Notes: generated from the sequence alone by a model not told the origin. Shown: positions 7,880 through 62,341, counted from the stretch's first letter. The stretch is 64,000 nucleotides of DNA from Psammoneis japonica (GCA_008632985.1 QPGO01000041.1:248001-312000); one strand, 5' to 3'. A program made the numbers and translations.

Positions 7880-10370
7880 GCACAGCAAGTCCGATGCATG
7901 TCATTGTCAGATAGATGATGATTGGAGAAAATCTCCCTTCAACGAACACTGTCATTTTGCTTGAGGGACTCAAAAAATGCGGTGTGTGCCATGGTGGGAA
8001 AACAGTCACTTGTGGGCAACCAAAAGTTGCACGTGGAAAAGACACGAAAAAGACCCAATTTTGAGATGATGAGAGTTGGCCCACTCTGGACTTGGTGCAA
8101 AAGAGTTTTGTCTTTTGCAAACAGTCCTGAGCACAAGCTTTTGTTGTGAGCAGAAACAAAAATCAAAAGCTGCTGTTTCCAAGTGGGCAGCAGTTTGGCC
8201 TGTCGTGCTGCATGCCTTTGGGTTCAGCAATGGCTGATTTTCAATGTGGCTGGGGGACAGTGACGGAGCTCTCAAAGTGTGTCTGTGGGCACACGTCCAC
8301 TCTGGGAAAAGAGAGGCATGGGTGCTGGCCGCTTGAATTTGTGCTGCTCCTTTTGCTGCAGGCTGAGATGATGCTGTTGTTGGTGGCAGTGCTGCCACCC
8401 AGCTGCAGAAATGACGAGATTGACCAGTGCACTTGGGCGTGTGCAAACAAAATGGTGCTGGGTGCAAAAGGTGCAAAGGTCAAAATTTGCTCAGAGCAGC
8501 AACACTGTTGTGATTTTCAGCTCTCAAAGAGTGTCTGCTGAAAGACCTCTGAATCTGAGGGGCAGCCAGAAATGACCCAGCCAACAGTGACACACTGGTG
8601 CAAGAAAGGAAGCAGCGAGGAAAGGATGAGAGGTTTTGATGAAAACAGCAGTGAGCACACCCTGCCACAACAAAAAAGACAACAATCAAGTGGAGAGTCA
8701 AGAAGCTGTGCAAAGAGAGAGATGCAGGCAGTTTGCCCATCTGTGGTTTGGGGCAATCAACAAAAACCAGCTTTGCTTTGCAAAAGTGCACCTCAGTTTT
8801 TGCTGTGTTTTGCCAGTGCAACAGCAACTGCAGGAGAGATGAAAGCTTTTGCACATCTGCGCAATGTGCACATTGGTGCCCGCTGCCTCAGCACTGTGAA
8901 CCAACTTGCTGCTCTTGCACCCTCACTCTTTTTTTTTTTTGCAAAGCCACTTTGCAACACTTGGCTCCAAACACATTTCAGCACTTTTGTTGTTTTGCAA
9001 CAAACTCCATGCATTTTAACACACATTGGCTGCACTTTCCACCCCTTGCCAAGGCTGTGCACTCTTGTGACATGTCTGTTTCTGCACATGGCAGCAACCT
9101 CAATGAAAAGGAATTGACCAGCCATGGTGCCAAGTTGTGGCTTTGCCCCCAAACATGACGAGGTTGACACTCCTTCCCCAAAACAATTTGGTTCACAAAC
9201 CCAACTTTGTGATGTCTTTAAATTTTTCAAGTGGCTTTGGCCCTGTGCTGCTTGCCCCAAGGCTCAGGAGTGTTGCTGCCACTCAAACCTTGAAAAAAAA
9301 GTTTGCCAAGCTCACGAAATGGAGGTCTCCTTCTTTGCTCAATTTCTGGCACCTGTCGCAACTTTGTTGAGGTGCCCAAGGTTCCAAGGTGTTCAAAGGT
9401 CAAACACACTCACAAGAGAAATGAAGTTGTTGACACAAATTGTTTGTGGCACCACAGCCCGCATGAAAATGAAATGAGTGGTGTGGTGGTGGCAGAAAAA
9501 ATGAGGCTTTCACTCATTTCATTTCACTTGATTCTTTCATTTTTGTCAGCTGCAGCTGCAGAAACTGTCAAAGAACAAATTCAAATGGACTTGCAAAAAA
9601 GGCACATGAGCAAGCAATTGGGAAAAGAGCTGATGTTCCTTGTGCCAAATCACAAGAGCCAGCATGTGATGTTGCAAGTTAGCTGAAATTGCATCTGCAT
9701 GAGAAAGTGTTGACTCCAATTGTTTGTGATGAAGATGCTCAAAAAATGTGAGCTGGGTGCATGATTTGATTGAGAATTGGAGTTTTCTTCTCATGTCAAA
9801 GGACATTGGCATGATCATCTGCTTTGCCGTTGGCTTTGACACCATCATGAGTGTGGGTGCAGGGACCCTTGCTGGAGGTCAACAACAGATGGCAGGAGAG
9901 AGTTGCAAGTTGTGGAAAAAATGCCTCTGACAGATTGGCTTGCGCCCATCACAGATGAAGCCAAAAATGAGAATCCATGATTTGAGCAATGTGCACCACT
10001 TCAACCATTCTGCATCCAAGCATTCAGAACAAACAGCTTTGCATGGTTGGGGTCAAGGGTTTGGGTCAGGGGCCAGGGAGTGAAACTTTTGGCAAAACTC
10101 CAGTTTGGGATGACATTTAACGCAGGTGTGACTGAGCAAGATTCCATCTAAAAAGTTAATCTGTGACATGACCAAGTCAATCTGTGAGGAGTTGGTGCCC
10201 GCAAGTTGCAAGCAGGTTGCACTGGGGCATGGAGAGAGGTGGAGGGGTCAAACTGTCAAGAGCAGATGTCTTCACGAAGTGCACTTTATAATTGGTTCAC
10301 AAAACTGTTTCTTATGCAGTGCCCCCATGGAGACTCAGCTTGTTTGTTGTGCTCACCGCGAACAGGTGCG
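7880..10370. other. Hypermutated block 1 (CpG- and TpA-depleted, TG/CA-rich decayed sequence)
   Basis: Abrupt loss of TA and CG dinucleotides; overlapping Cys/His/Gln-rich spurious ORFs in all frames. Boundaries approximate. Confidence 0.8.
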
Positions 10371-10468
10371 TGCTGTTGTCCGAAATGGTGAATAAAATAG
10401 ACGGAATATAAAAAACAACAACATTCTTTCTTACATCTTCGCTCACAACCGCGACGACACATTCAAGT

Positions 10469-17199: not shown

Positions 17200-19240
17200 A
17201 AGGTGTTTTGTTCATGCTGCGCCCGCTCATGGCTTGATGTTTACGGTACATGCAAGCCGCACAATGCACAGACAGTGCTAGCTCGGTGTGTGCCAGCCGC
17301 CGCGGCCGGCGCATCTTGCTTGCTCAGCCTTCAGTTTGAACTTCAGCGTTCACACAACCCTCTTGAGAACACTCCACAAGGCCTCACACCCTCCCTCGAC
17401 CTCAGACAATGGGCTTGCCTGCTTTGAGAACTGTGGTGCACAGTGCTGGTAGGTGTGCATGCACAAATGACGCGCATGCAAAGACATGCTGGCTGGCTGC
17501 TGGCTGGCTGGAAGAATCGCCACTGGAGTTTCGGGCTTCATTCAAACAGTGCCACCGGTGCACCGTGTGCCATCCAACAATGGGGATTGAGCATGGGGTC
17601 CAAGGCCCTTGGTGCCATTGAACACCTTGGTTTCTCTGAGTTTTGTGTCATGCTGCCAGACAGGGTGAAAAAAAGTGGTGGGAGAAGAAAAGGGCACCCG
17701 ATGGTTGCTGCGAGCATGCTGTGGTTGATGTTTGTTCTCAGGGGCAATTAAGGTGTCATTGACACTGAGGACCAGGTTCTTGCTTTTCTGGAAAAGTTTT
17801 TTTGGAAGCAATTCACTCAGCAGCGATGCACGATCCACACGAGCAACGAGCAACATTGCTCCAAAAAGGCGCGCTGCCATTGACAGGCAAGCAAAACGCA
17901 ATGGAAGTGCATCACTCAGGTGATGAACTTCAAGACAGAAATTGCAAAGACATGTTGTGCTCTGCATTTTGAAATGTGCAATGCCTTGGATGTGAAAAAC
18001 AATCTCACAACAACAAGGGACACTTCAGACAGCAAGCAGACCCTTCAACCACCACAACAGAGAGCAAATCTCCACGGGTGGAGATTTGCTCTAATGAGAT
18101 GATGAGCACAACACAAAAATGTCACATGGCACACAATCTGTGCAGAATGTGCCATGCGCATTTGCTTGTTGCAAGTTGCTCCAAGGGTGTGGCTTTTGCT
18201 GCTCTGTTGTGACAGCAACTCACAATGAACGAACCTCATTGTTGAAGGTTGAGATTTGGTTCCTCTCTGTGCATGGATGAAGCACGCAAAAAACCTGGTG
18301 TTAAAAGTTAACATTGAACTTTCTAAATTGCAAAAATGGTTCCCCAGAGCTTTTGGCAAATGCGTGCTCCAAAACAAAATTGTGCGATTTCTTTGACACT
18401 CACATCTGAGAACATTTTGTTCAACATGTTTTCTGATCAAGGCATTGACCAAAAGCAAGACCTTGCTGCTCTTTCAGACTTGTGGGCAGCCTGGGAATTT
18501 CAGTGCAATTTTGTGTTTGAGCCTGTGTTGCAGACAGAACATTTGCCACAGCAGCACTCACTTCTGGTGCCTCACACAATCTGGCTGGAGTGGGATGACA
18601 CACCACCGCTGTTTGACTGTTTCACCCTGTCGACAGAGTGCAGTGCATGTGCGATGTTTGTGCCATCATCTGTCCCTTGATCAATGGGTGCACCACAATT
18701 TTCTAAAGTGAGAGTCCATGACCTGCATGACCCCTGTGCTGTGCTGGTGGCATGCCCACAGCAGCACTTGGAACCCCACCTGCACAAGCAGCCATGCACC
18801 CCCAGGCAACAACCAAGTGCAAGTTTTTCCTTGTGGTCATGGGGTGGATGGCCCAAGAAGCAGTCAAAACACATTCTCTCACCCTCTGTCAATGTCAGAG
18901 TGTGAATGAGAAGAGAGAAAGCTGTGGCAAGCAGTGCTTGTTGGCTCTCTCTTTTTTTCAATGGCCAATTTGTTGCTTGATGGTCACAGCTGTGAGTGAC
19001 TTCAAACCACTGCACCAACCTTGACACAGCTCCAATGTTGACAAAGAGTGTGCAGGCTTGTGCTCACACAGTTTTGAGTGTTTGCAACCCATCTTTGGCT
19101 TGCAACTGGACCCACATTGTGGCACCAACACTTGTTTCTGTTTTGGTGGGTGCCCGCATGTTCATGTGATGCGTCTCTCCCGATGTGTCTCTCCCCATGA
19201 CGGGGATGCGGTTGAGCCAGGTTGAGCACAACAGCAGACG
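17200..19240. other. Hypermutated block 2
   Basis: Same TA/CG depletion; remaining TA sites are mostly TTAA/CTAA. Confidence 0.8.
18061..18092. repeat. Perfect 15-bp palindrome with 2-nt spacer
   Basis: AGAGCAAATCTCCAC-GG-GTGGAGATTTGCTCT. Confidence 0.9.
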
Positions 19241-19466
19241 AAAAAAATCTTTTGTGTATTATGCTATCTCTCTTGGGAGTTCTTACTTCTAATTACTGTG
19301 TACAGGTCATTCTTTCATGCTTCTTACTGCATTGGCGTTGCTCATTGCTCTGCAGGTAGCCACGACAAGAGGTTGATGGCAAGCTGTGGCTTCAAATTGC
19401 TTTGGTTGTGGCCTACTTTCAGCTTTGTCTTGTCTTTTCTCTTCACTTAAGTCAATATTTTCGTCT

Positions 19467-20705
19467 CTACTTCGCACTCACCCAAACACTTCTGCGTCTA
19501 CCACTTTCCAACACTACACGTCTCTGTGCCAAAACATCTAATCCAATCAAGGCTGCTGGGCCTGTGTATGGAGTCTTGCCATCTGGAGACAGCATTTCCG
19601 AAAAGGCAGGAATATCACCAATGGCAATCTGCGTCGGTGCCCATGGTTTCCATTCCGACGGGGGCTGTTCAAACACAATGCCGGCACTAGACGAGGACTT
19701 GGTCTTGTCTGCAGCGCCAACAAAACTGAATTGAAGCTTGTGGGTTGGCATTTGCTGTGGCCGACCATCCACACCCAGAGCCATTACTTGAGGTGTGCCT
19801 CGATATGAGGCATCCTGTTTGGGTGGCAAACCCAAGTAGCCGGCTGCAGCCCAATTCACGGCAGAAAAGGTAGATCCACAATCTAAGAAACCCAGAATGG
19901 GTTGTGGTGTCGACTGCTGTGTCGACAAGACTCGGATTCCAATGAGACCCGTTTCATTTATAACGGCGGCAGGAATTTGCACTAGCCCCTTAATTCGGGA
20001 TGGATCTTGATCAAAGGTCCCCGCTTTCCAGAGGCGCAAGCGATTCTTTGGAAAATCAAAATCAACATCAAACTGCTCGAGCATTTCCATACCAAGCATT
20101 CCCTCGACTGGATCATGCTGAGGATCGATATGCTCCTGAGGAAAGTCGGTAACAATGGCATGGAGCAAGGGCAAGGCAAGTTCGTCTTTGGTACTGTCTT
20201 GAAACGTGCCGCAACAGATCGAGGCATCACTGAGCTCGACAAGATCTCCACCTCCCGTCGAACCACCGGCCGCAATCCCTTTCAAGGATGACTTGTAACC
20301 TCCAATACCAAGTGTCTGCTGCAAATGGGGAGTCACAAGCTCGGTCGTTAAACCAGTATCCACCATGAAATCAAACGGCCCTTTGATTTTCATCTTGATC
20401 GCCACATACTCTCGGCCCAAACCCTGAGGAGGAAGGCGCAGCCGAACCATTGGTAAATCCGCCAAGAGATCCGAGCTACTAGCAGTTGTTGCTGCTGATG
20501 CCGATTTTTGAGAAAAGAAGAAGGGCAGCGCCGCACCGTGAGCCATGACATCGCGACGGTTCTTGTTGTCGTGGCAAACAATCACGGAGCTTCGTTTTGA
20601 TGATTCATGGTGAAGAACTCTGCTTGGAGCAAACGCGTCTGTTGTGCTTCTTCCAATGAAAGCGAGTGTCGTCACTGCCGCAACAGCTGCTACTGCTATC
20701 TTCAT
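19467..20705 (-). CDS. Plastid-targeted aspartyl protease with two retropepsin-like domains
   Basis: Signal peptide with DAF-AP; FMVDTG...GMLG and FLDCGSTFS...LIGLD motifs. Confidence 0.8.
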   Translation of the reverse strand: MKIAVAAVAAVTTLAFIGRSTTDAFAPSRVLHHESSKRSSVIVCHDNKNRRDVMAHGAALPFFFSQKSASAATTASSSDLLADLPMVRLRLPPQGLGREYVAIKMKIKGPFDFMVDTGLTTELVTPHLQQTLGIGGYKSSLKGIAAGGSTGGGDLVELSDASICCGTFQDSTKDELALPLLHAIVTDFPQEHIDPQHDPVEGMLGMEMLEQFDVDFDFPKNRLRLWKAGTFDQDPSRIKGLVQIPAAVINETGLIGIRVLSTQQSTPQPILGFLDCGSTFSAVNWAAAGYLGLPPKQDASYRGTPQVMALGVDGRPQQMPTHKLQFSFVGAADKTKSSSSAGIVFEQPPSEWKPWAPTQIAIGDIPAFSEMLSPDGKTPYTGPAALIGLDVLAQRRVVLESGRRRSVWVSAK

Positions 20706-20991
20706 GGTAATATTTTGTCTTTGTGTGCTCTCCTTTGACTTGTGTCAGACGATGACACCCCGGGGGTGGGCTTCGCATCGATTGTAGTCGAACGATTCAA
20801 TTACCGATTGAATCCGCGATCAGCATTATATCCACGACTCAAAGATCTTTGAGCGTCACGACGCACTCACCCATCACATCACTTGAACTCCGCTTGTCTG
20901 ATGTCTGATGATGCGCTCGTCACAATGCGAACAGTTCCTCTTTTCACTTTTCAATACCAACAATCGGTGTCACGTTTGAATTACATACACC

Positions 20992-23372: not shown

Positions 23373-25097
23373 CTATTTTCCGCACGCAGGAGCGCCAACG
23401 AAATCGCCATCAAGTTTGTTGAGGATAAGCTGAATGCCTGCCAAGTTCCTAGAGGTTGCCAACTTATAATTCTTCTTGCGCTGGAAACCTCTGGCTTGCT
23501 TTAATAACTTTTCTGGTTTCACAAGGTTCACGTCATCCTTGAGCTTGTCCTCATTTGCCACCGCGTCGATCAAATCCTCAAGTAAGTCAAGCGAGCATTT
23601 TCCCCCGACAGTAGCTGAGCATTCGGCATACGTTTGGGCAACTAGCCGTCCCCTCTCAATAGCTATTGCACGATATTGCTGAAACTTCTTGAGGGAAGAT
23701 CTCATCCGTTTGATGGGCACGATAACGTCTCCACTGTCTGTCACCTTTTTGAAGGCGACCTCTGCCGCCTGTTCAGATTTGGAAAGGATTGTTTTGGCAA
23801 AGCCTTTAGGCGCATATTCAAATTTCTCCGTGTATTTCTTGAGGCACCGTGAGTACTGACATATCAGGTCAGCAAACACGTCAGAGAATTGCGGCTCCTG
23901 GGTGGGGGATGGTGTCGTCGGAGCCATGGTTGGGCACACATGCGGCTCACTTTTTGTTGCAGACGGCTCCTTCTCCGGACAACTAATGACTTTCGCTGCC
24001 GGAGACTCGTAATCCATAGTCGTCCAGGACATGGGCGGGCCACGCTGGTCGCACAGCTCGCGTTCCGCCATGATGAGATTTTGCGTTCCGTCAGGGGTCC
24101 AAGCAAAGGTTTCCGTTTGGCCAGATATATGCCTCCAATCAAGGCATGCCTTGGCGTCACCTGTCAGGGCTTCGGCGACCCTGACACCGGGACATCGCGG
24201 AAATAAGAATGTTTTGCTACCGGTGCCGCCAAGAGCAATCAGAGTCCCGTCCAACGTCATGTCCGCCATGGTCCACGTGTTACCATATAAGTCACCACCA
24301 TTGGGGCAATCCCCCACAGCTGCAGGCGAATAAGGAACCTCTGACAAATCCCAGGCAGACGCAGGAATTTGAAACAATCTCGTTTTGTCTTGGGCACTGG
24401 AACCGCTCCATTTGGTGACTACGTATATATCCCCTTTATTCTCTCCTTCCCCCCATGCCTGGTGGTCTAAAAAGATGGCTTCGCTATCAGCAAATTCCGT
24501 AGGAGACGATGGGTGGCGGTAATCATATTCCAACACATATGTATCTTTAGCTTCAATCGCATCGTTATCGTCGAACTTGTGTAGAATGGGTTCTCTTATC
24601 TTGTAGATTCGATACGGGTTTCCCTCTCGTCCAGATTCCGTCCCTTCCCGAACTCTCGCAAGGTTGTCACCGATATCCCCAATGTAGATACATGACGCGG
24701 TTTCACCGTGAATACCGCATGATCCAATAGCCAGAGATTCCCAATCAAAGGCTGAAGGAAGGCTTGGAATACGCAGTGTCAATAAACGCTTTCCAGAACC
24801 TGAATCAAACACGCCCAACCTCTTCCCGCTTCCGCTATCATTGTTGGCATACATTACGGGTCTTCCTGAGGGTGCTGTTTGGGTGGACGACAAGGCGAGT
24901 CCAGAAACCTCCGAAAAATTCGGACCATTTTCGTCTCTTGACTCGAGTTCAGACGAAGAGTCCACTTGACCAATTATCGGACAAATCACATCGGCGAAAG
25001 ATTTGCGACAAAACAGCAGCATTGTGATTGTCAACAGTGTAAACCTTGCCGACGAGCGCCATGGTGATGATAAGGATGCTAAGGTGCGAATTGGCAT
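23373..25097 (-). CDS. Secreted protein with bacterial-type beta-propeller-like domain, Pro/Thr linker and helical C-terminus
   Basis: Signal peptide after MPIRTL; EVSGLA..NNDSG..DWESLA..IYIGDIGDN motifs; MAPTTPSPT linker. Start codon inferred. Confidence 0.7.
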   Translation of the reverse strand: MPIRTLASLSSPWRSSARFTLLTITMLLFCRKSFADVICPIIGQVDSSSELESRDENGPNFSEVSGLALSSTQTAPSGRPVMYANNDSGSGKRLGVFDSGSGKRLLTLRIPSLPSAFDWESLAIGSCGIHGETASCIYIGDIGDNLARVREGTESGREGNPYRIYKIREPILHKFDDNDAIEAKDTYVLEYDYRHPSSPTEFADSEAIFLDHQAWGEGENKGDIYVVTKWSGSSAQDKTRLFQIPASAWDLSEVPYSPAAVGDCPNGGDLYGNTWTMADMTLDGTLIALGGTGSKTFLFPRCPGVRVAEALTGDAKACLDWRHISGQTETFAWTPDGTQNLIMAERELCDQRGPPMSWTTMDYESPAAKVISCPEKEPSATKSEPHVCPTMAPTTPSPTQEPQFSDVFADLICQYSRCLKKYTEKFEYAPKGFAKTILSKSEQAAEVAFKKVTDSGDVIVPIKRMRSSLKKFQQYRAIAIERGRLVAQTYAECSATVGGKCSLDLLEDLIDAVANEDKLKDDVNLVKPEKLLKQARGFQRKKNYKLATSRNLAGIQLILNKLDGDFVGAPACGK

Positions 25098-44171: not shown

Positions 44172-46789
44172 ATGGCGCTATCCCCAGTCACTTTCTCCCC
44201 ATCGACGCACCTTATTCTCCTTCTCTGCACTTTTACAAAAGTAGTAGCCACTGCATTCGTACCATCTCCATTTATCAGCTGGCACATGCTCAAGGATGCC
44301 GACACACCCAGAGGAGGATCAAGTTCACCGGCAACTACCACTACTGCTTGCATCCTCGAATTTGACACGGCAGATAGATCGCTCCATATTCATAGTAGCG
44401 ATGGAGAAGAAATATGTCTCTTTGCGGCTGTGTCACGAGTGTGGTCAGCGAAACCATCCGACGACAATAACGGTGTATTCCTACACACGTCGCACCCAAC
44501 CAAAGCGTCGGCATTTGATACATCACTGGGCAAACTGTTCACATGTCATCGATTACTGGCCTGTGCTCGAGTAACCCGATATTGGATGGGACCTGCGTTC
44601 GGTACCAAATCGAAACATATACCTCTTGACACGCAATTCTTGATGCTTGAAATCAAAGAGGGTGGTCCGTATGCCCTACTTTTGCCATTGTTGGATGGTG
44701 ACATTCGCGCTAGCTTGAGTGGCAGCAACAAAAAGAACGAGATTCTATGCCACGAAGAGAGTGGAGATGAATCCGTTTCGACATATGGTACTAGAGCCTT
44801 ATATGTGGCGGTGGGTGATGATCCATACAAGTTGCTTAGGGATGGCTTTGCCACGGTGGCTAGAGAAACTTTAACGTTTGCCACGCTCGATACGAAAACG
44901 TTACCACCAAATGTGGACGAGTTTGGTTGGTGTACCTGGGATGCCTTTTATTCAAAAGTAACGCCTCAGGGTATTATTGATGGCGTCACATCATTGAGGG
45001 AAGCGGGGATACAACCGAAAACGATTATACTAGACGATGGATGGCAACAAGTTGAGCCGCAGAAGAAGAGCATTGAAGTTGCGTCACCTGAGGAACAATC
45101 GAAGCCAAGGTCGTCAATAGCTACCAAGATTGCCAACGGTGTGCTTAGTATATTTGAAAAAGCTCTATCGACATTGTATGAAACCTTTGTTAGAAAGGCA
45201 CCTTTCAACTCGATTCCGAACAGAATCTGGCGCTTCCTTGCACGAACCGTACTAAAGGGACAACTTTGGGAATATTTTGACAATGAAACTGATTTTGGGA
45301 GGCAATTAAGCGGATTTCACTTAATGAAAAGTTCCAAGAAAATACCGATGAGTCCACAATCGGCCTAAAGGAACTTGTATCTCGCTTAAAGACAGAATTT
45401 GGAGTAACGCGGTTGTTTTGCTGGCACGCACTTCACGGCTATTGGCGCGGAGCAACTCCCAAGCTGGGCAAGGATAATGGGTTCAATGTAACGAATTTGA
45501 TGCCACAGCTTTCTGAGCACCTGTTGAAAGTTGAACCAGTTTTGGCGTGGGATGCAGTGTCGCTCTTTGGGGTTGGTCTCGTGACAAATGAGCAGGACCT
45601 GTCCAAATTCTATGACTATCTACATTCCCCTCTAGTTGATGCAGGAGTCGATGGAGTAAAAGTCGATGTACAGTCTGGCGTATCATCGCTTGGTGGCGGC
45701 ATTGGCGGAGGTAGTCGCATTGCTCGTTTGTATACACAAGCTCTAGAGGATTCAGTGGCGACAAGGTTTGCTTCTCAAGACGGCGGCATCAGTTGTATTA
45801 ACTGCATGTGCCATTCAACCGAAAATTTGTATCGATACAAACAAACGTCATTGGCAAGAGCATCGGATGATTTCTACCCCAGACGACCCAATAGTCACAC
45901 TGTGCATTTGGTGAACGTTGCATACAACTCACTCTTCATTGGGGAAATTTGCATGCCTGACTGGGACATGTTCCATTCCAAGCATGAATCGGGAGGCCTA
46001 CACGCCGCGGCTCGAGCAATCAGTGGTGGTCCAGTTTATGTGAGTGATGCACCTGGCGAGCATGACGCTGAACTACTGAAACGACTCGTTTTACCAGATG
46101 GATCCGTGTTGCGCTGTCTACTACCTGGCCGACCGACACGAGATTGCCTCTTTGCCGATGTAGCCAAGGATGCATCTAGTGTATTGAAGGTTTGGAATCA
46201 AAATCATCATGGCGGTGTTGTTGGACTGTTCAACTGTCAAGGCGTCGCGTGGAATTATAACACGCATGAGAATGAAGTTGTGAACAAGTCTCCACCGATG
46301 CTGACTGCGTCCGTCAAAGCTCATGATGTTGAAAGCCTGCGAAATAAGAATTGTCCATTTGTTGCTTTACGTCACCGAAGCTCGGCACTTGAATATCTTC
46401 GAGATGGAAACGCGACAGTACAGAGCAACATATCACCGAAGGATTGGGATATTATTACATTTGTTCCGGTGCAACAAACAAGTAATGGCGGTGTAGCTTG
46501 GGCTCCAATCGGTCTTGCCGACATGCTGAATACCGGAGGAGCAGTGCTCAACGTCACAAACATTGAAAATGACAACGCTTCTGCTTCTTGGGCAATGCTT
46601 ACAAGCCGTGGTCCGGGACGTTTCGTTGCCTTCTGCCGACCAGCACCAACGCAACTATCATTGATTCATGATCCAGATTCAGCCACCAACTTGCCTTTTA
46701 CGTACGATGCTGGGTCGGGATTGCTGAGCTTTGTCCTGCCAAGTGAGAGGGATGGTGCTCCGCATCGTGTAAAGGTTGTTTGGGAATGA
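44172..46789 (+). CDS. Raffinose synthase / seed-imbibition alkaline alpha-galactosidase (GH36), probable plastid presequence; apparent frameshift near 45320
   Basis: FGWCTWDAFY, IILDDGWQ, WHALHGYW, DGVKVDVQ, RASDDFYP, PDWDMFHS, AISGGPVYVSD; TAF-VP motif. Confidence 0.9.
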
Positions 46790-52138: not shown

Positions 52139-55100
52139 TCTTGCTTCTATGTTACGGCAGGGGAGAACTGCTTTAGTTTTGACCCGGGTGAACCTTTTGT
52201 TGAGACGAAAGTTGCAAGTTGCGAAGGATCTTGCTGTGAAAGGTTCAAACGGATGTATGAGAGATGCAGAGATGCACTAAGCACTGAGCATAGAGCATAC
52301 TACTCGTAGTACCATGCTGAGGTGGTGGCGATGTTTTGGTTGGTCGTCGGAGAGAATTTTTGGTGGCTTTTCACGAGCCAGCTTTTTTAGTCGTCCGAGT
52401 CGATACACCCCCCCTCCCCGCGTCCGCTTGCATCTTTCTTGATTCTTGCATGATGTGCAGGCATGTTGATGTGTGCGTTGTGTGTGGATCAACAATGCGC
52501 TGTCTTGCCAGCTTTGTGTTGTTGTGGTCATGGCATTTGCGCTCAAATGCACCCTCAATGTCCCCACAGTCATGGCAGCACACTGCGGCTCTTGGGATGA
52601 CAGCCAAGCTCTCCTGTGTTGTTTGGTGAGCTGCTTTTGCTGGAAACCCATTGTTGTGTTGCACTGGTTGAATGGAGTCTAAAATTTGTCACAAGAATGG
52701 GGCAAAGACTCCATTTCTGAAAACACCCTTTCATGCACATTCTGGAGTCTTTTTGCACAGCTTCAGCGCAGCAGGTGCCACGCCGCTCTCTGCCTTGAGT
52801 CCATGTCTGTTGGTCTGTCACATTGTGCCAGGGTCGCATGCAGGCGATGTGTTCTGGTGCTCTTGTGGATGGATGGAGCATCTGCCACCAGGAATTTAAA
52901 ACACACACACAAGTCAAAAAATTTTCCATGAGGGTCATGGATTCAATGTGTGATTTCAAATCCACCTCCTGCCAGTGCGGCAACAATCCACTTTCTGACC
53001 ATGAGCACCATGGCACATGGCACTTGAGTCATTTCAAGAGTGCACCACAGTGCTTTCCTCCCACATTTGGCCATCTTCAATGAATGGTTGGATTGCAAAG
53101 CACTTCATTGACAGACAAGAGAGCTCTCGTTCCTTGATTTGAGCTCAGCGATTGCACAGAATGAAGAGATGGACCCCAGCTGATCCATTGCTCTGTCTTG
53201 GAAGCTCACATCCCTCAAAGCATCAGCTTGGGGTCATTCTTTCATCCCTGTTTCATGTGGTGAGCAATCCATTCTAGCCACCTGCAATGATTCAAATGAC
53301 CCACCAACAAGCTTGGAGGAGATGGACGAGACAAGTTTCAACCAAGAGATGTGTCACTCCACCAATGTGCATGTGGTGGATCCCCCAAGGGGTGTCCATG
53401 TTAGAGGACATGCTTGTGGCAAAAGCTGATGATCCATTTTTGTCCTGCATTGCTTCTGTGCAATGAAGAGAACAGAAAGTCCACAAGCCCCACAAACAAA
53501 GGTGTGAGCTGAGCAGGTGCATGTTCTTGAAATTTGCTGCATTTTTGGTGGCTCCTTGATTCTCTTCAATGCCATTGCAGAGAATCAACTCCAGTTTTGA
53601 CATGCCCAAACCAACTGCAAATGCGCACTTTCTGACTTCTCTCTTCTTTTCATTGGGAGCAGCACAAAAACTGCAGTTGCCAACAACTGTGGTGGTCTTC
53701 TGATGCAATTGCTTGCACAAGTGCTCCTTGATCACCACCTCCTCTCTCCTCCTTGTGGGTGTCATTTTGCTGATGCTGCTTCAGGCTCACATCAGAAGTG
53801 GCTTTTTCTGTGAGACATGGTTTGCTTTTTTGTGATTTTCTGTTTCAGCTGCAATGTTGGCAACTTTGATTGAGGATGCTGTGATCATGGGTCAAAAAAG
53901 ATGCAGGACACCTTGGATGACAATGCTGTGCTTGTTTGTTGACACCCCTGAATGCCCCAGTTGCAGCGTCAGCTTTTTTTTTCATTTTTGTGCTGACAGT
54001 GTTGTCCCAGCAGCCTTGATGAGAGAACAAAATGTGTTTGACACAAGGGTGTGTCATTGGTCAAAGCCACATGCTGAGTGCCAGCAATTCATCCCAAGCA
54101 ACAGTGTCAGATGTGTCTTTTTTTTCAAGTTGCTGGATGCAAGGACACTGGGGGACCTCAAAACCAATCCCGATCCTCTCACAAAAAATGCCGGTGCACT
54201 TTTGCAAACTGGTGCATGATCAAAATGACAAAAATGCCATGTGTGATGAGCATCCACGAACAATTCTGACCATGAAACAACCATGGATTGGCCTGGAAAG
54301 TGGCGCATTGTTGAGCGTGTCAACAGACTTCTGTGTCCACCATTTGTTGCTGTGTTTTCAATGGTGGTTCCTTGGGCAGGTGCACATTTTGGGACTCCTG
54401 TTGAGGAGTTTTGTTCACAATGACATGTCCCACCATTCATTTCAAAGCACCATTCATTTCCTTTGATCACCCTTTCTCATGTTTTTCTTGTTTTCTCTCT
54501 CTTTCTCTATTTTCCACATGACTGGTTGGTGTTTTGGCAGGCTGCATCTGCATCATGTTTCCTTCTTTTCCAGCCCCTGGGTGTGCACTGCATTTGTTCA
54601 GAAGGCACTTTTCTCAGTGGCACAAGACACCACTCTTTCAATGTTTGAAACCAAGTCTTTGTTTTGGCAACCCTTTGGCCCATGACTCCTTTTTTCTGGC
54701 TCTTGATGAGGTTTCCTGCAAGTCCAGCAAGAGAAGCCCTTGCTCCAAGCTCTTTAGACAAGCTTGTTTTGGACTCTGTTTTTTGCAACAATGGACTCAC
54801 CTGAACTCTGTGTCTGCCTTCTTCTCTCTGTCCTTGTGATTTTGTGGCATGTTGCTTGTTGATGTGATGCTGGGTGGCGCTTTTGGTTTGTGTCATGTTG
54901 ACATTGAGCAATGAACAGCTGCACAAAGGAAACATGCTCGTGAGTTGTCATTTGACAAAAAAATTCTGCTTCTGGGACAATGCTTCCATGTTGCCTTGCG
55001 GATGTTCTCAGATTTTGCAGAAAAAGTGCTTGGTGCCAACTGACACACATGGCAATGTGCCTTGCAGACTGTGCTGATGTTCATTGTTTGGTTCATTGCA

Positions 55101-55402
55101 CAGATTTGTTGAGAAACAGAGTGGCGCCAGGTTCATTTGCATGTCATTTTTTGATGATGTGTTCATCAGAGGTGCATGGGTGGTCTTGTCATCCGCGCAT
55201 GTGCTTCCTTGTGCACAACCAATGTGCGAATGACAAAACAATTTGTGCACCTCTGGTGTTCATTGCATGTCACAAGAGTTTTGATGTTTCCCATGGCAGG
55301 CATGCAGGAATCCAAGGTTTCCCTCTGGAGTCATGCTCACCACGTGCTCTGACCCCTCTCATTCTTCTCCAAAGCCAGACTTTTTTAAATTGCAGACTCT
55401 GT

Positions 55403-55655
55403 CAAGTTGAGGATTGAAGCCGCACAAATGAGCATCAAGTTCTGCACGCGCACATGAAGAGCAGAAAAACAGGGTTTGTCAAGTGGAAATCAGTGTGGTC
55501 AAAACCAGCGGTGCCATGGGAGCTGGTGCCGCTTGGGTGGGTTTCCTCCCACTGACAACCAGTGCACTTTCTGAGTTTGCAAACCCTGTTTTTCTGCTCT
55601 TCATGCATGTGCATGGAACTTGATGCTCATTCAAGTGGCTTCATTCCTCAACTTG
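55403..55655. mobile_element. MITE-like element with ~76-bp terminal inverted repeats
   Basis: 55403-55478 CAAGTTGAGG...GAAGAGCAGAAAAACAGGGTTTG is the reverse complement of 55580-55655, with mismatches mainly at TG/CA/CG. Confidence 0.8.
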
Positions 55656-57179
55656 TCATGGAACTGAAGCCTGCCACCTCCATGTCTTTGCACCACAGGT
55701 GAGCAAGAGCTGTTGCAACAACAAAGACAGTTCAATCCCAGTCACAGAGAATCATTTGTTGACTGTGCTGCATGGTTTCAAAGGCTGCATCTGTGCATGA
55801 GAGAATGGCATGGCAGCTGGCCACAACAACAAGAGCACAACTTGGTGATGGCAAAATTGAATTTGCCATTTTGACGACTTTGACCTCAGAAAGTTGCACA
55901 TTGCCTCCTGGGCAAAGAGGCATGGGTTGCCAACCACATGAGAACTTGCTTCCTGAGCAAGGGGGCAGAAAGCCAAAGATGTCAAGCTGCCAATCTGGGC
56001 ACTCTTTGGAGCTCTTCTTTGTCTGTGTGCCAAAATCATCAGATGGGCCACCATGCATCCTGCCATGCATTTTGAAATGAGGAGGGTCAGAGTGCTTCTT
56101 TGCTGCCATCTCAAGCATCTGCAAGTCATCTGCACAATCAATGTCTCTTCTCACTGAGAGAGAATGAGAGATGGAAGCTCATCTTGTCAGCCACAGTCAT
56201 TTTCCCCTTTGTTTGCCACTGGGCAGAAAAAGCACTGGCAAGAAACACAAAAACAATGGGGTGCAAAAAACTTTGTTTTTGTCAATCAGTGTTCAACAAC
56301 ATCCCAATCCATCAAACAGGAAATTATGAAGAAAGCATCAACACTGAGAGAGAGTGTGTGTGCACTGGCAATGGCATCAGGCAGCATGTTGAAATGCCAG
56401 CAGCACACCAATGCTCTGGAGGGCACCCGCACAATGACAGAGGGGCATGCAATGAGAACAAGAAACAGCAACAACACCACAACCAACAAAATCAAAACAC
56501 ACATGCACAAATGAATGACCCCCTCCCAAAAAACCAATGTCGGCACACACGAAACTCCCCACAATGTCAACCATGCAACTGGAACCTGCTGTCTCCACAG
56601 AGCCTGCTGCACGAATGTGTCTCTGCATGCAGGGCACAAAGTGAACTCTTGGACACAGCACTCACCATGGTTTGGCAGACATTGTTCTTTGGTTGATGAA
56701 AATGAACAAGCCATCTTTTTTGTCAGAGGGATGGCCAAATTTGTGATGTCAAATGGAGGTGAAAGGGCGGGGCTGCTGTTGTGAGGATTTTCAAATTTGT
56801 TTTTCCAATGCAGAGCAAAATGTTGGGAAGCAGCATTGTGAAGTGCAAGTTTCTGCACAATTTGATTGTGGAAGGTCCAATGAATGTGCAGCACAAGAAG
56901 CACAATGAAAGGAAGCTTCTTTCCGGCCAGCAGGAACAACAAAATCAGGCCACAACAAATGAGCACCAACACACAATCATCCCAGCCTGCTCATTGTCTC
57001 CAACCATCAGCAAGTGCCAGTCACAGTGGAAGGGGCAACTCATGCAAGCCGCCTGACATGCAGGGTGGGTGCCAGGTGCCAGAAGAAATGGCGGCAGCAG
57101 CAAAAACAAGAGAGAGAAAATGAGTGACCCCCTCCCTGAGCTTGGCATTTTGAAAACGGAAAGTCCATTGTCGGCACAA

Positions 57180-58400
57180 TCAGATTTCAACAAACCACTG
57201 CTGAAAATGTGCCTCCATCATTTTTGAAGCATCTTCCTCCTTCACAATGATCTTCTTCCCCTTGTTCAGGACATTTCCTTCAAAGGGTTGCTTTTCCAGC
57301 TTGTCCAACTTGCCCTTTGGCATCACAAAAATTGCATGGCAAGGTGCCCGCGTTGCGCTGATGCCTTCCATGTAATTTGTGATCTGACAGGCCCGCCATT
57401 CTTTGGCAGGTGTTTTGCATCGGCAATCGTCACCTGCAGAGGATGCAAAACTCCATCCATGTGGAAGCAGCGGAAATCACACGTGGGAAAATTGGCTGTT
57501 GTGGGCCACACCAATGCACGGGCACCATGCTCCATCCATTGTCTGTTGCAAGACCTCTCCACAAGGGACTGTGCACTTGGACAAAGTGCTGCAATTGAGC
57601 ACCACAGCATCACCCAACTGTGGTGCAATGATCAACTTGGATGCCTGGCCTTCCAAGCCTTGCAGCAAAAACGTCCCTCCCCCTGGAAAATGATGGATGG
57701 CATGTGCTTCAAACAAGGCACCAGCATGACCTTCCGCTCCTGGCAGAGACCTTGTCATGTTGGTGGTTTCTTTCAGCTTGCACAGAGTTTCCTTGTGGAG
57801 CTTCTGGGAGATGCATGCCTCGGCGTGCCAGGAGACCAAGTCATGAGAAATGTTGCCATCATGCTTGAAAGATTGGCCAGCATTTTTGGACGGTTCCCAT
57901 CAAACCAGTGCATGCACCACAACTCTTTCCATCTCCTTGTCTGTCTGCTGCATGGCCACCATGGTGCAAAGGTTGCTTGGGTTTGCTGCTTTTGCAGAAT
58001 TGTCAACCTTCTTCTTTGCCAGTCCTTTGTCAAAAATGCAGCAAACAACTCCATTCACATGGTCAAAATTGTCACTCACACAGCCTTTGTCTCTGTGCCA
58101 AGTGAGTTGCCCAATTTGTTTGCCTTGCTGCATGACCAAGTTGGCATGCATGGGTCTCGATGGAATGCCACAGCATCAAAAAGGTTTTTGGTGCAAACGC
58201 TTGGAGAGGCTGCCACAACAATCACTCCGCAGAAGTTCTCAACAGAAAAGCTCATGGAGCACCCATCTGTGAACATGGCATCAAGCTTTGACAAATGACC
58301 AACCTCTGTCTTTCTTGAATCTCTCATCAACATCACACATCCACCTCTCTTGCGTGCAGATGACTCCACTGCTCTCGAATCTCAGTGAGAGCCAAGATGA
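57180..58400 (-). pseudogene. Decayed Crinkler/RHS-like (NTPase + PD-(D/E)XK nuclease) gene
   Basis: Fragments VIVVAASP...(Y)MPTWS; LVWPTTANFPT(Y)DF...PLQVTIA..KH; (Y)AIFVMP...KQ...QQWFVEI*, resembling CRN/RHS C-termini. Recognised from memory of the family only. Confidence 0.6.
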
Positions 58401-58774
58401 CCTCAAGACCTCAATGTGATGGATTCAGGGGGGTGCTGTCATGAGCTTTGTCATCACAGTCATCACAATTGCAGCTTTCTTGTTGTCTCTCATCATTGTC
58501 CCAATTGTCACAATCACAATCATCATCTCCACACATCAACATGATTTCATCTTCTGGAGTGCAGCTTCTGCTGTGCATCACAAATGTTGCAATTTTTTGT
58601 GAGAATGCACACGAACACTCGCTTGCACAAAGCATGCTGTTAGACTGCACCCTGGAAGAAGTGCAACACACAGCTGCCAATGAGAGTCAATGTATCACGG
58701 CGACGTGTTGCAGCCTTTAAATGTCACAAAGGGCGTGACAAAATAACCTTTTGTCTGCATGCACACTGCATTGT

Positions 58775-58848
58775 GAATTCACAGCGGAGTGGTACATCGT
58801 AACCACACTGGGCAGGAGGCCAGGGGTTCGAAACCCGAGTGGGAGTTG
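58775..58848 (+). promoter_or_regulatory. tRNA-derived Pol III A-box/B-box module
   Basis: A-box CAGCGGAGTGG (58782-92) and B-box GGTTCGAAACC (58825-35) at tRNA-like spacing; no good cloverleaf. Confidence 0.55.
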
Positions 58849-59091
58849 TCTGCAGCAACGTTGATCACTGTCGAACGCGTAAAACTCTGTGCAGTTCTGT
58901 GTGTTCCTTCGTACGCACCCACACTGTTCCGCCAAAACCGTGCAGTGTCAGTGCACGTTAGCAAAGAGCCGCATGGACGCGTGACACATGGGGAGGAGTG
59001 CAACACACAGCTGCTAATGAGAGTCAATGCATCACGGCGACGTGTTACAGCCTTTAAATGTCACAAAGGTTGTTTTTGTCACGCCCTTTGT

Positions 59092-60103
59092 GCACGCGAT
59101 CTACGTTGCGTAGAAAGATCAGGAGTGTCTCGCGTGCAGCCGTAGAAAGGTGCGGAGTGCCCATCTCGTGCGTTGGACCATCCGGATCAGCAGGGTTGTT
59201 GCGCAGCTTGAACGTCTGGTGCTCGCCCTGCTGCAGCTCTTTCTTCTCCGGCCGGCTCAACCCGCTTCTTCATGGTCGTTTTAAGATTTGTCGGTCCTGC
59301 CAACATTTCGCAGTTTCGTTTCTGCAGATTTCGTCACCTCGCACAACATGCGGGAGTGACATTGCTGTGCCCCATGCACGTGCCAGGCACTGAAAAAAAG
59401 AGATGTGTTGCGACTTTGTCGCTGTGAAAATTGTGAGCCAGTTTGGAGCAGAGAAAATGGGATCGTGCGAATGGGGAATCTTGCCAAATCCCCATTCGCT
59501 CGCATTTCGATCGTGTCAAATCGATCGTGCGCTCGCATTGTGGATCGTGCGAATCAAGCCATCACGCGCCATGCACGAGTGATGTCATTGTGTGGAATCA
59601 CGCTGCCATCGTGGGCCAGACGACGGGCTGGTGTGCTCCACACGGACGCTCTCTTGGCATCCTTCTGGATTTGCCCAAGACCCAGAGCCACGCCCTCCTG
59701 TGGTCGTGCTTCCCAGGCACGTGTTGACAATGCCACGTTGCCACGCACAAGAGGCTCATGCACGGTCTCGCTGTGTTGTCCAGCAGTGAGGCACACTGCA
59801 CACTCCCCCATGATCAGGGCCGTCAAGTGACAGAATGTCTTGCTGGTGACAGGGTGCAATCTGCCGCAGATCACACGCACCCATCAGCGCTCCGTTCTGG
59901 GTGCGCAACGTGCCGTTGTCACACATGCGGACAACTCTGGCGGGTCCTGCGCAGCTGTCAGAACCGCGTTTAGAGGATTGTTCCTGTTTGATGAGTGCCA
60001 ATTGCCCTGCGGCACATTGGCGCTCCTTGCGTTTCTGATTTTCACGCTTGTTGTTCAAGTGGATGAGCTTCTGCTTTCTGGTTTCTATGTGCTTCCACTT
60101 GGC
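59092..60103 (-). mobile_element. Gypsy fragment: integrase C-terminus, PPT, single LTR (~59442-59800), PBS, gag N-terminus
   Basis: KWKHIETRKQKLIHLNNKRENQKR...GP..V...DNGTL; ATGGGGGAGTG|TGCA; TGG PBS near 59440; RPEKKEL..GEHQTFKLRNNPADPDGPT. Confidence 0.8.
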
Positions 60104-62341
60104 ACGGTCGAACGCGCAAAACTCTGTGCAGTTCTGCATGTTCCTTCGTGCGCACCCACACTGTTCCACCAAAACTGTGCAGTGTCAGCACACATGAGCG
60201 CAGGTCATGTGACACATGGGGAGGAGTGCAACATGCAGCCACTGACAAGAGCCAGTGTGTCACGGCGACGTGTTGCAGCCTTCAAATGTCACAAAGGGCG
60301 TGACAAAATAACCTTTTGTCTGTGTGCATGCTGCAGAAGCCTGGACAGCTCAAATTTTGTTGTTGATTTGTCACCTGATGCCTTGATTTCATCCATGTGC
60401 CAACCACCATTGCTTGGACAGCAAAGAGAAGAGCTTGAACAGCAAGCAAAGAGACAAGCACCATGCAGCAGCATGCTTTGCAATGGCATCTGTTGCTGCT
60501 TTTGTTTTTGAAAATGATTTGGTGAAAAACTGTGTTGGCTTCTGTCAACTTCTTTCAAAATGCTGCTTGATGATGTTCTCAAACAGCACAAGAACAAATG
60601 CTTGCTTTTTAAAAGCTCAAAAGTGAAAGCAACACAAGCACAGCTTCCTGCTGATTGCTCCAGACTTGGGTGGCACACACACGCATGCCCATTTTTGCAC
60701 AAAAACAAAAATTTTATGATGTGTTCATTGCAACAAATTTCTGCATTTTGCGTGTCATGTTCATGACTGAAGCTTGAATGAACAAGAAAAAGGAAAACAA
60801 AAACACAGTCCTCGTGGCTGTCAGCAGCCATGACGGTTCCCTGCTTTCAACCTCATGGACAATTGAGCAGCATCATGAGGACCACATTGTTCGATGCAGT
60901 TGACACATGAACCACATGTGATGAAAAACAATTGCTGCAGTCTGTGGCACACTTTTGCACTTCACCATGGTGACCACAGCTTTCAGAAGCAACAGCCTGC
61001 ATCACTTTGTGCCAGAGTTGATGCTGAGAACCATTGCTTTTCTTTTGTCAAGCAAATCATCAACATCAAGCAAGCAGCAGGAAAGGGTCTGAAGTCAGGC
61101 AGCGCCATTGTGGTGCCAACATTTTTGTTGTGCATCGTTGCACAATTTGCTGCTCAACAGATGTGTTGACAAAACCGTTGAATTGCAAGCATCCAGCTGC
61201 ATTGATGAAAACAATTGCCACATCTTTCATGTCTTTGTTCACACAAAAGAACATTTGTGCATGTTTTGTGCAGGCACCTTCATGTGGCACAAGTTGCTCA
61301 AGGAAAAATTGAGCTCTCATCTTGCGGCACCATTTGGCAACAACACAAACTTGCTTGGCCAAGCTTCAGAGACAATGATGCTGGCATGCACACGAGACTT
61401 TTTTGCACACACACATGTGTCTGCTTTTTTGCTGTCAAAAATTGTGCCACAAGTTCGGGTCGTGCATTTGATGTGAAAATGGGCTTTTTTTTTTTGCGCA
61501 CGCGTGCACCTGAGTCTGGAGCAAATCTGAAGAAGATGATGAAAAGAGAGACGCCATGTTGGGCCTGTTCCAGCTCCAGGTGATCTGCTTTTCATCATGC
61601 AAGAGGCAGATTTTTTGCACAGTTTGGCACACTGAACTCCTTCAATTTTGATCATTTCGAAAATCAAAAGGCAAGTGCACACCCAAAAATGCATGTGAAG
61701 TGCACACTCACCCTTCGATTTGGCAAAAAACGGATTTGGAAAAAGTCAATTGCGCCAAACCCAAAAATGGGCAAATGATGGGAATCGAACCCACACGGAT
61801 GAGCACCTGGAGCTGGAACAGGCCGTTGGCATGATGACCAAAAGACATGCGATCTTGCACACAATCAGTGTTGGGCAAATGTCAATGACACATGATTGCC
61901 AATTTTCACTGTTTCAAAGACATGGCTCACTTCAACAAAACACATCTTGCAATGACTTCTTGCGAGCAGCACAAGAAGGTGCTCAGCTGCGCAGATGCAC
62001 CAATGACATCTCGATCATCATGTGGCCCGCACATGTTCTGGCATGTTTTGTGCAGGAAACTCTGTGGTGTGCGTGTTGAGCCAAATCCGCAAGAGCACCG
62101 GAACACATTTTTCGCCACCGTCTGTCTGAATTCAGCCGGCGGTGCGGTCGACGCACAGACACTCACGATGGAGAGTTCGCTTGCTCGCTCGCCATCGCGC
62201 GCTCTTGCAAGGCCTTCACGTCCGTCCGCCTCCCGTCATATCCTGTTTTGCTCGTTCTTTTTGAGAAAGTTTGAGCGAGACGCGAGACGCCATGACGGCG
62301 ACTCGTAGGGCCCAGCGTATGTTGTTGAGCAAGCTGGCAGC

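Follow-up and report, generated by a model that had tools for sequence, protein, structure and literature searches.

Here we report that, in a 64,000-bp stretch of the genome of the diatom Psammoneis japonica (GCA_008632985.1, QPGO01000041.1:248001-312000; hereafter the window), discrete blocks of DNA that include a decayed Ty3/gypsy long terminal repeat (LTR) retrotransposon and a satellite array have lost nearly all of their TA dinucleotides and have become rich in TG and CA. The loss of TA is mutational, followed insertion, and occurred in DNA. We think it likely that these domains are hypermutated in place at TpA, perhaps by an adenine deaminase and as a form of genome defence. An earlier reading of the sequence (the original prediction) had proposed that five blocks in the window are hypermutated from TpA to TpG or CpA, and that this process acts on silenced repeats alongside the decay of CpG. 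Below we lay out the evidence that the TA-poor blocks are real, that they arose by a process distinct from CpG decay, and that this process has a preferred sequence context, and we then weigh explanations for it.

In 1-kb windows, the ratio of observed to expected occurrences (o/e) of TA was 0.00-0.18 in the five regions originally reported, with TG and CA at 1.5-2.3, whereas windows between these regions had TA at 0.35-0.82, CG at 0.8-1.26 and TG/CA at about 1.0-1.5. All five regions lay where they had been placed, and finer mapping divided two of them. In particular, we delimited strict TA-poor segments from the lengths of the gaps separating successive TA, and took expected counts from the density of the window's ordinary DNA; seven such segments make up 29,043 bp of the 64,000 bp (Table 1), and in them we counted 67 TA against 1,093 expected and 380 CG against 1,643 expected. 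The near-total loss of TA was present in every block, whereas the predicted loss of CG was present in most blocks but weak in 59283-62238 (114 CG observed vs. 167 expected). When o/e ratios were computed for all 16 dinucleotides, the deficit of TA and CG and the excess of TG and CA were specific to the blocks: over whole blocks the ratios were 0.03 for TA, 0.23 for CG, 1.83 for TG and 1.85 for CA, compared with 0.56, 0.98, 1.18 and 1.20, respectively, in the 32,005 bp of ordinary DNA, so that the DNA between the blocks is indeed of ordinary composition. The sum of the four pyrimidine-purine (YpR) ratios is about 3.9 in blocks and ordinary DNA alike, and G+C is 48% both inside the blocks and in the flanking ordinary DNA; this is the pattern expected of transitions within YpR steps. 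Moreover, the possibility that intergenic DNA is simply TA-poor in this genome was not borne out, since the window's ordinary DNA outside open reading frames (ORFs; 9,306 bp) has a TA o/e of 0.62 and a CG o/e of 1.03, which indicates that the blocks do not merely have intergenic composition.

The depletion is both deep and sharply bounded. The longest TA-free runs within the blocks span 1,524, 1,477 and 1,373 bp, whereas the maximum in ordinary DNA is 242 bp, and the probability of a TA-free run of at least 1,000 bp at the ordinary TA density is 5e-17. The blocks end sharply, within about 100 bp, at distances of 100-250 bp from the ends of adjacent ORFs; block 2, for example, starts about 150 bp from the end of a kelch-gene ORF at 17131, and a cyclase gene of 1.7 kb with ordinary TA and CG sits between two 8-kb blocks whose edges are 130 and 115 bp off the ends of its ORF. 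On the + strand of the blocks (about 29,043 bp) there are 41 TAA and 19 TAG but 685 TGA. The loss of TAA and TAG leaves spurious long ORFs, such as one of 432 amino acids at 28008-29306 that spans the satellite, and these could be mis-annotated as genes.

The coding remnant of the retrotransposon reveals what the TA dinucleotides became. The element at 38419-42634 has the make-up of a Ty3/gypsy element, with a pair of LTRs of about 375 bp around an ordered pol. An intact metagenomic Ty3/gypsy pol of 1,047 amino acids (P0002; domains PF13650, PF00078, PF17919 and PF00665) aligns over its residues 7-1045 to 41907-38831(-), and the order protease, reverse transcriptase (RT), RNase H, integrase is retained in the window; we did not identify gag in the element. 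Of the 40 Tyr positions of P0002 (TAY, where Y is a pyrimidine), 13 are Cys (TGY) and 10 are His (CAY) in the window pol, and none is Tyr. Overall, the pol remnant contains 0.0% Tyr, compared with 4.2% in the homologue, along with 4.7% Cys (vs. 1.1%) and 4.9% His (vs. 1.9%). As a control, two intact homologues that are 49% identical to each other retain Tyr at 24 of 41 Tyr positions, with no change to Cys and one to His. The same holds for conserved columns, defined as those with at least 60% Tyr among at least five aligned homologues: at 28 such columns the window pol has Cys 12 times, His 6 times, Phe 5 times, other residues 5 times and Tyr never. At 64 conserved Arg columns, Arg is kept at 12, and Gln (10), Cys (5), Trp (4) and His (4) are found at others; these four residues are the products of CGN decay. 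A box of the reverse transcriptase that is SLDLNMGYYHI in intact relatives is SLDLNMGCCHV in the window copy.

Relatives of the element have ordinary TA. Among 79 metagenomic loci related to pol, drawn from the best 80 of 506 confirmed hits and biased to intact copies, the median TA o/e is 0.82 and the minimum 0.54; none is TA-poor, and none contains a TA-less window of 500 bp. The gypsy family is thus not natively TA-poor, and the condition of the window copy, with its conserved Tyr columns lost, sets it apart from its 79 relatives. Two of these relatives (L044 and L002) have a CG o/e of 0.12-0.13, yet a TA o/e of 0.62-0.68. Their hosts are ones that methylate such elements without erasing TA, and CpG decay alone therefore leaves TA in place.

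An element integrates with two identical LTRs, so differences between them record what happened afterwards. Across 383 aligned columns, the LTR pair differs by 66 transitions and 7 transversions (73 differences). CA stands opposite TG in 18 columns, TA opposite TG or CA in 6, and CG opposite TG or CA in 5; in all, 47 of the 66 transitions fall in columns in which one YpR step replaces another. Units of the satellite likewise disagree at shared columns of the unit alignment, having TG, CA or CG at the same place, and the satellite is hit although it has no recognisable retro-element coding part. A further comparison comes from the near-normal island at 58641-59282, which is paralogous to the hypermutated stretch 60103-60335 (self-BLAST pairs of 82-94%): five TA of the island copy have TG or CA as their counterparts in 60103-60335, where many CG survive. 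(The transition/transversion total of this alignment, 31/20, takes in badly aligned ends and was not used.) The island may have escaped as a recent copy, a protected element or a small gene; it is also repeated internally (58654-58732 vs. 58991-59069, 94%). Finally, TG and CA are present at about 1:1 in every block, and neighbouring TG/CA sites share a label with a probability of 0.50, as chance would give. Processive editing of one strand was considered as a mode of action and rejected on a negative test for strand runs (z between -2.1 and +1.0 for the runs in all blocks), and the 1:1 ratio without runs weighs against long one-strand editing tracts. Taken together, the divergence of the LTRs, the paralogues, the satellite and the strand symmetry rule out that RNA or cDNA was edited ahead of integration. 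A second process that converts A:T to G:C at TpA, as originally proposed, is thus supported by the replacement of Tyr by Cys and His, by the LTR and paralogue pairs, and by the ordinary TA of the relatives.

Loss of TA and loss of CG are separable, independent processes. In block 5b (59283-62238) TA is at 4.5% of expectation and CG at 68%, whereas in the zone 38445-39086 TA is at 50% of expectation and CG at 11%. Within 62000-62240 and 43500-43800 there are 0-1 TA but 5-13 CG per 100 bp. Segments in which TA is gone but CG is kept indicate that TA erasure needs no CpG loss and can outpace CG decay, and the zone 38445-39086, which keeps half of its TA while the rest of the gypsy element keeps nearly none, indicates that the TA process acted unevenly within one element. 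Decay of CG to TG or CA is nevertheless seen in most blocks, in the overall CG count, in the five LTR columns and in the Arg columns described above. The suggestion that TA loss is coupled to 5-methylcytosine (5mC) found no support, because TA is lost where CG is kept and the reverse is also seen.

The TA dinucleotides that survive point to a preferred target. We compared the 96 TA surviving in merged blocks with those of ordinary DNA and found TTAA over-represented 5.8-fold, CTAA/TTAG 4.3-fold and CTAG 1.7-fold, and found ATAC/GTAT (0.07), ATAT (0.13), ATAG/CTAT (0.19) and GTAC (0.26) depleted. Expressed per trinucleotide, 3.5% of TAC, 2.4% of TAT, 11% of TAG and 21% of TAA remain, and the distribution of 3' neighbours of surviving TA differs from that in ordinary DNA (chi-square 118, p = 2e-25). 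Sites with a 3' pyrimidine on both strands are almost erased and those with a purine on both strands are the longest-lived, so that the preferred target is TAY (RTA on the other strand, where R is a purine). In pol, a purine precedes five of six Tyr codons with a His outcome, which is consistent with this preference, the numbers being too few for a test. As an independent test, TA-to-TG/CA change and CpG decay were imposed in a simulation on the window's own ordinary DNA; the simulated ratios of TG and CA (1.85-1.86) came close to those observed (1.83-1.85). With TAY preferred 10-30-fold, the misfit summed up over the 16 dinucleotides fell from 0.10 to 0.06, while the simulated AT ratio shifted from 0.98 to 0.90 and the GC ratio from 1.07 to 1.17, towards the observed values.

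The TA-less blocks are not an assembly or base-calling error. A public DNA run, coded X1, has a word depth of about 65 at unique DNA and carries 67% of sampled words of 36000-44500. Contigs built from X1 reads alone reproduce the window with 0 differences over 25000-25728, 0 over 25723-26475, 1 over 30629-31311 and 1 over 32121-35700, and three more contigs from blocks or block edges differ at 2-3 positions each; the reads thus do not contradict the assembly, as they would if the blocks were artefacts of sequencing. X1 may come from the same sample as the assembly, so that it excludes assembly and base-calling error, yet is not an independent strain. One X1 contig, at 42329-43092, has 22 differences from the window; it may be a paralogue or an allele, and nothing was drawn from it. 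We considered whether differences between the window and X1 are denser in blocks, as ongoing mutation would predict, and dropped the idea, since only that contig favoured it and the other block contigs have 0-3 differences. Two other runs, X2 and X3, contain next to nothing of the stretch, and no RNA run is listed as containing it.

The same reads bear on how far the blocks are repeats. At a likeness of at least 85%, 2,861 X1 contigs fall on the stretch, and the places where they differ from it comprise 507 transitions and 175 transversions; among the 40 matches listed, other copies read CG or TA at places that are TG or CA in the window, and vice versa. Word depth in the satellite is 940-2,980, compared with about 65 in unique DNA, and many other block parts are highly repeated in the genome, at depths of up to 26,890. 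The description of the process as repeat-targeted is therefore only tentative: many parts of the blocks are multi-copy, but 32304-33631 and 35624-38279 are single-copy by depth at a likeness of at least 85%, a threshold past which older copies may have diverged.

These observations lead us to propose the following. Transposon, satellite and other non-genic domains were hit in place, in DNA and after insertion, with TpA becoming TpG or CpA. Either strand was hit with equal probability, site by site, with TAY (RTA) preferred, and the process has run nearly to completion. It halts within about 100 bp of the edge of a domain and leaves adjacent genes untouched, and decay of CpG to TpG or CpA acts on most of the same domains, separately and more slowly. 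An enzyme may be drawn to these domains by silent chromatin or by small RNAs, and the outcome may serve as a mutational genome defence. We tentatively suggest, as the favoured candidate at slightly less than even odds, that the agent is a DNA-acting adenine deaminase of the TadA/ADAT2 type, which would convert A to inosine, read as G. The native substrate of TadA is A34, which follows U33 and precedes C35 (UAC), and early TadA base editors obtained by evolution favoured YAC; this UAC/YAC preference of TadA/ADAT2 enzymes and adenine base editors resembles the TAY preference seen here. We know of no natural enzyme established to deaminate adenine in chromosomal DNA, adenine base editors being laboratory-evolved, and, to our knowledge, no natural member of the TadA/ADAT2 family has been established as a chromosomal DNA adenine deaminase for genome defence. 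Candidate leads are found in the survey of Iyer et al. (2011, PMC3239186), which lists stramenopile-restricted deaminase-SAM-Tudor proteins and LmjF36.5940-like deaminases.

Several points weigh against hypermutation of silent domains by such a deaminase. Runs of same-strand changes are absent, unlike the traces of processive single-strand deaminases of the APOBEC type, and the simulation falls short of the observed AT deficit (0.90 vs. 0.81) and GC excess (1.17 vs. 1.29). Most block stretches are identical in the window and in X1, which may be the very sample behind the assembly. The targeting and the deaminase are parts of the proposal that we infer. Lastly, TpA is self-complementary, and the signature fits an attack on T (RTA to RCA) equally well.

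That last point opens the way to an explanation in which thymine, rather than adenine, is attacked: a dioxygenase of the TET/JBP type would oxidise the T of RTA to 5-hydroxymethyl- or 5-formyl-uracil, which mispairs with G and so yields T-to-C change, turning TpA into CpA, or into TpG as read on the other strand. A palindromic, strand-symmetric signature is what such an enzyme would leave, RTA-to-RCA change accounts for the data exactly as well as TAY-to-TGY change, and because the target is palindromic, thymine oxidation and adenine deamination are indistinguishable by sequence alone. Independent, non-clustered sites would suit a base-flipping enzyme acting on duplex DNA; furthermore, 5-formyluracil is mutagenic towards A:T-to-G:C, and the hydroxymethyluracil of dinoflagellates is enriched at TpA. 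We nonetheless consider thymine oxidation, a close rival, unlikely; the sole paper with an experimental precedent (discussed below) proposes a deaminase, though its text offers no enzyme data. Less probable still is error-prone patch repair, in which a Y-family polymerase resembling Pol eta would write G opposite T at TA in methylated or damaged heterochromatin, one of the agents named in the original prediction. Pol eta does make A-to-G errors at WA motifs (where W is A or T) in immunoglobulin hypermutation, and repair of deaminated 5mC could account for the restriction to domains, but WA includes AA, and the A-to-G change at both AA and TA that marks Pol eta is not found in the window: AA shows no deficit there, its o/e being 1.29 within blocks and 1.17 in ordinary DNA, which makes this candidate a poor fit. 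In addition, TA is lost where CG is retained, which argues against dependence on the repair of CpG deamination, and 94% of expected TA is gone while transversions account for only 7 of the 73 LTR differences, a purity that would be hard for a low-fidelity polymerase to achieve.

We give very little credence to two further explanations. If an ADAR-like enzyme edited A to I in transposon RNA before reverse transcription, copies would arrive already mutated; the preference of ADARs for a 5' U matches TpA (bioRxiv 10.64898/2026.01.13.699255, discussion), and at least one block is a retrotransposon. This account is contradicted by the LTR pair, in which each LTR carries different mutations (18 CA/TG columns), by the equal involvement of the two strands, and by the fact that the satellite array and single-copy stretches are hit as well; ADARs, moreover, favour a G on the 3' side, but the TA that last best here are those in TAG and TAA. 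The alternative is that there was no mutation process, and that the blocks reflect an artefact of sequencing, base-calling or polishing in modified DNA, or else a natively TA-poor transposable element (TE) family or foreign DNA. Long-read base-callers can miscall heavily modified DNA, and X1 might be the data set with which the assembly was polished, but contigs made from X1 alone reproduce block DNA with 0-1 differences at a word depth of about 65. The replacement of Tyr by Cys/His and of Arg by Gln/His/Cys/Trp relative to intact relatives is real sequence change, none of the 79 relatives is TA-poor, and neither context-dependent survival of TA nor divergence of the LTRs would be expected of native composition.

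The closest parallel to the hypermutation of TpA in the window comes from mutation accumulation in the chlorarachniophyte Bigelowiella natans (Mettrop et al., bioRxiv 10.64898/2026.01.13.699255). The preprint reports that 231 of 302 nuclear point mutations fell in two integrated viral regions, that 230 of these 231 were A-to-G or T-to-C, all on TpA, at a rate of about 6e-7 per site per generation, and that the genome contains 124 TpA-depleted, CpA+TpG-enriched clusters in which RT and DDE domains are enriched; it puts forward an ADAT2-like candidate, unproven there. On the preprint's account, the two systems share change of TpA to TpG/CpA essentially alone, confinement to discrete foreign or selfish domains, a drift towards GC against the usual bias, TpA-depleted clusters rich in CpA and TpG, and the possibility that single-copy DNA is a target, and the process in the window is probably of the same kind. 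They differ in host, a diatom (stramenopile) here and a rhizarian there; in targets, an LTR retrotransposon, a satellite and unclassified non-genic DNA here and giant-virus or virophage insertions there; and in extent, with a near-saturated TA o/e of 0.03 here and 0.45 in the nucleocytoplasmic large DNA virus (NCLDV) region of B. natans. An overlay of CpG decay is a feature of the window, and so is the TAY preference, the main text of the preprint being silent on flanking or trinucleotide context, and on diatoms. New here, relative to the B. natans case as the preprint describes it, are thus the diatom lineage, the transposon and satellite targets, the near-saturation, the CpG overlay and the TAY preference. 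The original prediction had held the phenomenon to be undescribed in diatoms; a full-text literature search, with most subscription journals outside its reach, found nothing on TpA hypermutation in diatoms, and that part stands, but the phenomenon itself was described in 2026 in the chlorarachniophyte.

Better-known systems resemble the pattern less closely. RIP (repeat-induced point mutation) among ascomycete fungi also inactivates selfish DNA irreversibly, by transitions at one dinucleotide that are sharply limited to elements and leave coding sequence riddled, but RIP turns CpA into TpA, raises A+T and creates new TA and stop codons, whereas in our blocks it is TA that is lost, G+C remains 48%, and TAA and TAG stops vanish. 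Indeed, neither CpA-to-TpA change nor a gain of A+T is found in the blocks, in which TA has an o/e of 0.03 and CA of 1.85. CpG decay driven by 5mC is shared, in that CG has become TG or CA in most blocks (CG o/e 0.23), but it cannot remove TA and is spatially separable from TA loss here. APOBEC3 (C-to-U on cDNA) and ADAR (A-to-I on double-stranded RNA) likewise use base editing, with a preference for certain dinucleotides, to hypermutate selfish nucleic acids; they act on pre-integration intermediates and on one strand, whereas here the LTRs were mutated after integration, on both strands, and DNA that is not of retro-element origin was hit too. The marks of pre-integration editing, namely mutations shared between LTRs and a strand bias, are not found in the window.

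Table 1. Features of the window; counts of TA and CG are given as observed vs. expected.
Feature	Coordinates	Strand	Content or evidence
Hypermutated block 1	7913-10117	.	TA 3 vs. 83, CG 19 vs. 125; unclassified repeat or non-genic
Partly depleted edge after block 1	10118-10450		
Hypermutated block 2	17280-19256	.	TA 7 vs. 74, CG 38 vs. 112; unclassified
Hypermutated block 3, including satellite array	25562-33861	.	TA 20 vs. 312, CG 67 vs. 469
Satellite tandem array, ~10 units of ~190 bp	26914-28781	+	TRF period 188-193, 73-82% matches
Spared gene, PAS - adenylate/guanylate cyclase	33991-35706	-	Pfam Guanylate_cyc E 4e-57 + PAS
Hypermutated block 4a	35822-38444	.	TA 7 vs. 99, CG 10 vs. 148; unclassified; word depth 39-69, as in unique DNA
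Decayed Ty3/gypsy LTR retrotransposon	38419-42634	-	tblastn with P0002, Pfam, LTR pair
LTRs of gypsy element	38419-38795 and 42255-42634		LTR pair comparison
pol of gypsy element	38831-41907	-	tblastn with intact metagenomic pol P0002
Partly mutated zone, one LTR + integrase C-terminus	38445-39086	.	TA 12 vs. 24, CG 4 vs. 36
Hypermutated block 4b: gypsy body, other LTR, flank	39087-43833	.	TA 16 vs. 179, CG 64 vs. 269
Hypermutated block 5a	52405-58640	.	TA 9 vs. 235, CG 68 vs. 353; unclassified
Near-normal island within block 5	58641-59282	.	TA 15 vs. 24, CG 42 vs. 36
Hypermutated block 5b	59283-62238	.	TA 5 vs. 111, CG 114 vs. 167; TA erased, most CG kept
Gypsy integrase C-terminal fragment in block 5b	59843-60106	-	tblastn P0002 aa 961-1047

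The blocks contain the gypsy element, a second integrase fragment and the satellite, and the remainder is unclassified. We screened 288 block ORFs against Pfam (147 of at least 90 amino acids and 141 of 62-89 amino acids), and only 2 gave TE matches (rve and RT_RNaseH_2, in 39170-40512(-)); ORFs of block 1 had no Pfam match, and sub-threshold matches to RANK_CRD_2, Gastrin, U83 and DUF3709 were taken as chance hits in Cys/His-rich junk. A lone N lies in block 3 at 32128. In block 5a, the 259 bp at 55400-55658 match their own reverse complement at 69% in a self-BLAST, which could reflect either a palindromic or hairpin element in decay or the TG/CA-rich composition. The genes that flank the blocks, among them those for an acyl-CoA oxidase, an aldehyde dehydrogenase, a kelch protein and a raffinose synthase, are of ordinary eukaryotic kinds and have long uninterrupted ORFs. 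All named homologues of the acyl-CoA oxidase are from raphid pennate diatoms (60-67% identity), and its best unnamed match is 73% identical; on this basis the window belongs to a raphid pennate diatom rather than to Bigelowiella. The raffinose-synthase homologue at 44166-46789 (+) occupies a pair of ORFs that overlap, 44166-45368 and 45293-46789, which implies a short intron or a frameshift. Adjoining block 2, an ORF of 425 amino acids at 19467-20744 (-) encodes an Asp_protease_2 / gag-asp-protease domain (E 9e-8) and has intermediate composition (TA o/e 0.35-0.43, and CG 0.52 at the end facing the block); perhaps it is a protease gene, derived from a TE or domesticated, on the edge of the hypermutated domain. 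A tRNA scan of the window found none.

Proteins in databases hint at similar footprints in other records. Among 27 short database sequences related to the window RT fragment, 3 are poor in Tyr (P0152 and P0164, 0%; P0157, 1.3%), compared with 2.5-7.5% in the other 24. At conserved Tyr columns, P0152, P0164 and P0157 have His or Cys at 9 of 10, 7 of 8 and 5 of 7, respectively, and Arg is kept at 7 of 10 conserved columns in P0152 and at 3 of 4 in P0164. In a wider survey of 1.84 billion proteins, 12 of the best 150 cluster representatives (P0176, P0200, P0250, P0255, P0245, P0233, P0208, P0197, P0302, P0246, P0236 and P0259) contain at most 1% Tyr, 11 of them none, and their Cys+His content is 6.4-12.5%, compared with a median of 4.3%. 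A regular expression for the RT box matched 2 of the 12, both with Cys-His for Tyr-Tyr, which is too few to count. These Tyr-less RT fragments, from public metagenome and assembly protein sets, look like the same TpA erasure in other records and offer only a hint that the process is widespread. It is conceivable, though we regard the idea as speculative and somewhat doubtful, that an old TpA-editing enzyme guided by chromatin or small RNAs and acting best on TAY in duplex chromosomal DNA was either present across the stramenopile, alveolate and rhizarian (SAR) group or acquired repeatedly, that it acts in diatoms and chlorarachniophytes, that in this diatom it has saturated essentially all TE and satellite DNA, and that the Tyr-less RT fragments are its traces elsewhere.

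With Psammoneis japonica, TpA-directed hypermutation of selfish DNA would be known from a second lineage and, for the first time, from a diatom. The footprint, some 94% of the expected TA having been lost over 45% of the 64-kb region, is far clearer than that of the first report. Since the blocks have normal G+C, scans based on G+C miss them, and since their proteins are barely recognisable (2 of 288 ORFs) and spurious ORFs abound, the TE content of diatoms will be under-called and gene models polluted. Loss of TA ahead of CpG decay in some blocks provides a relative clock for insertion age. Furthermore, the saturated, TAY-specific footprint makes this host a promising one in which to look for a natural editor of adenine in DNA. 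A shared SAR enzyme, if indeed responsible, would be either a natural deaminase of DNA adenine or an equivalent that oxidises thymine, and would serve in irreversible genome defence. A second lineage would make the TpA process a candidate for a widespread eukaryotic defence of the genome rather than the curiosity of one alga.

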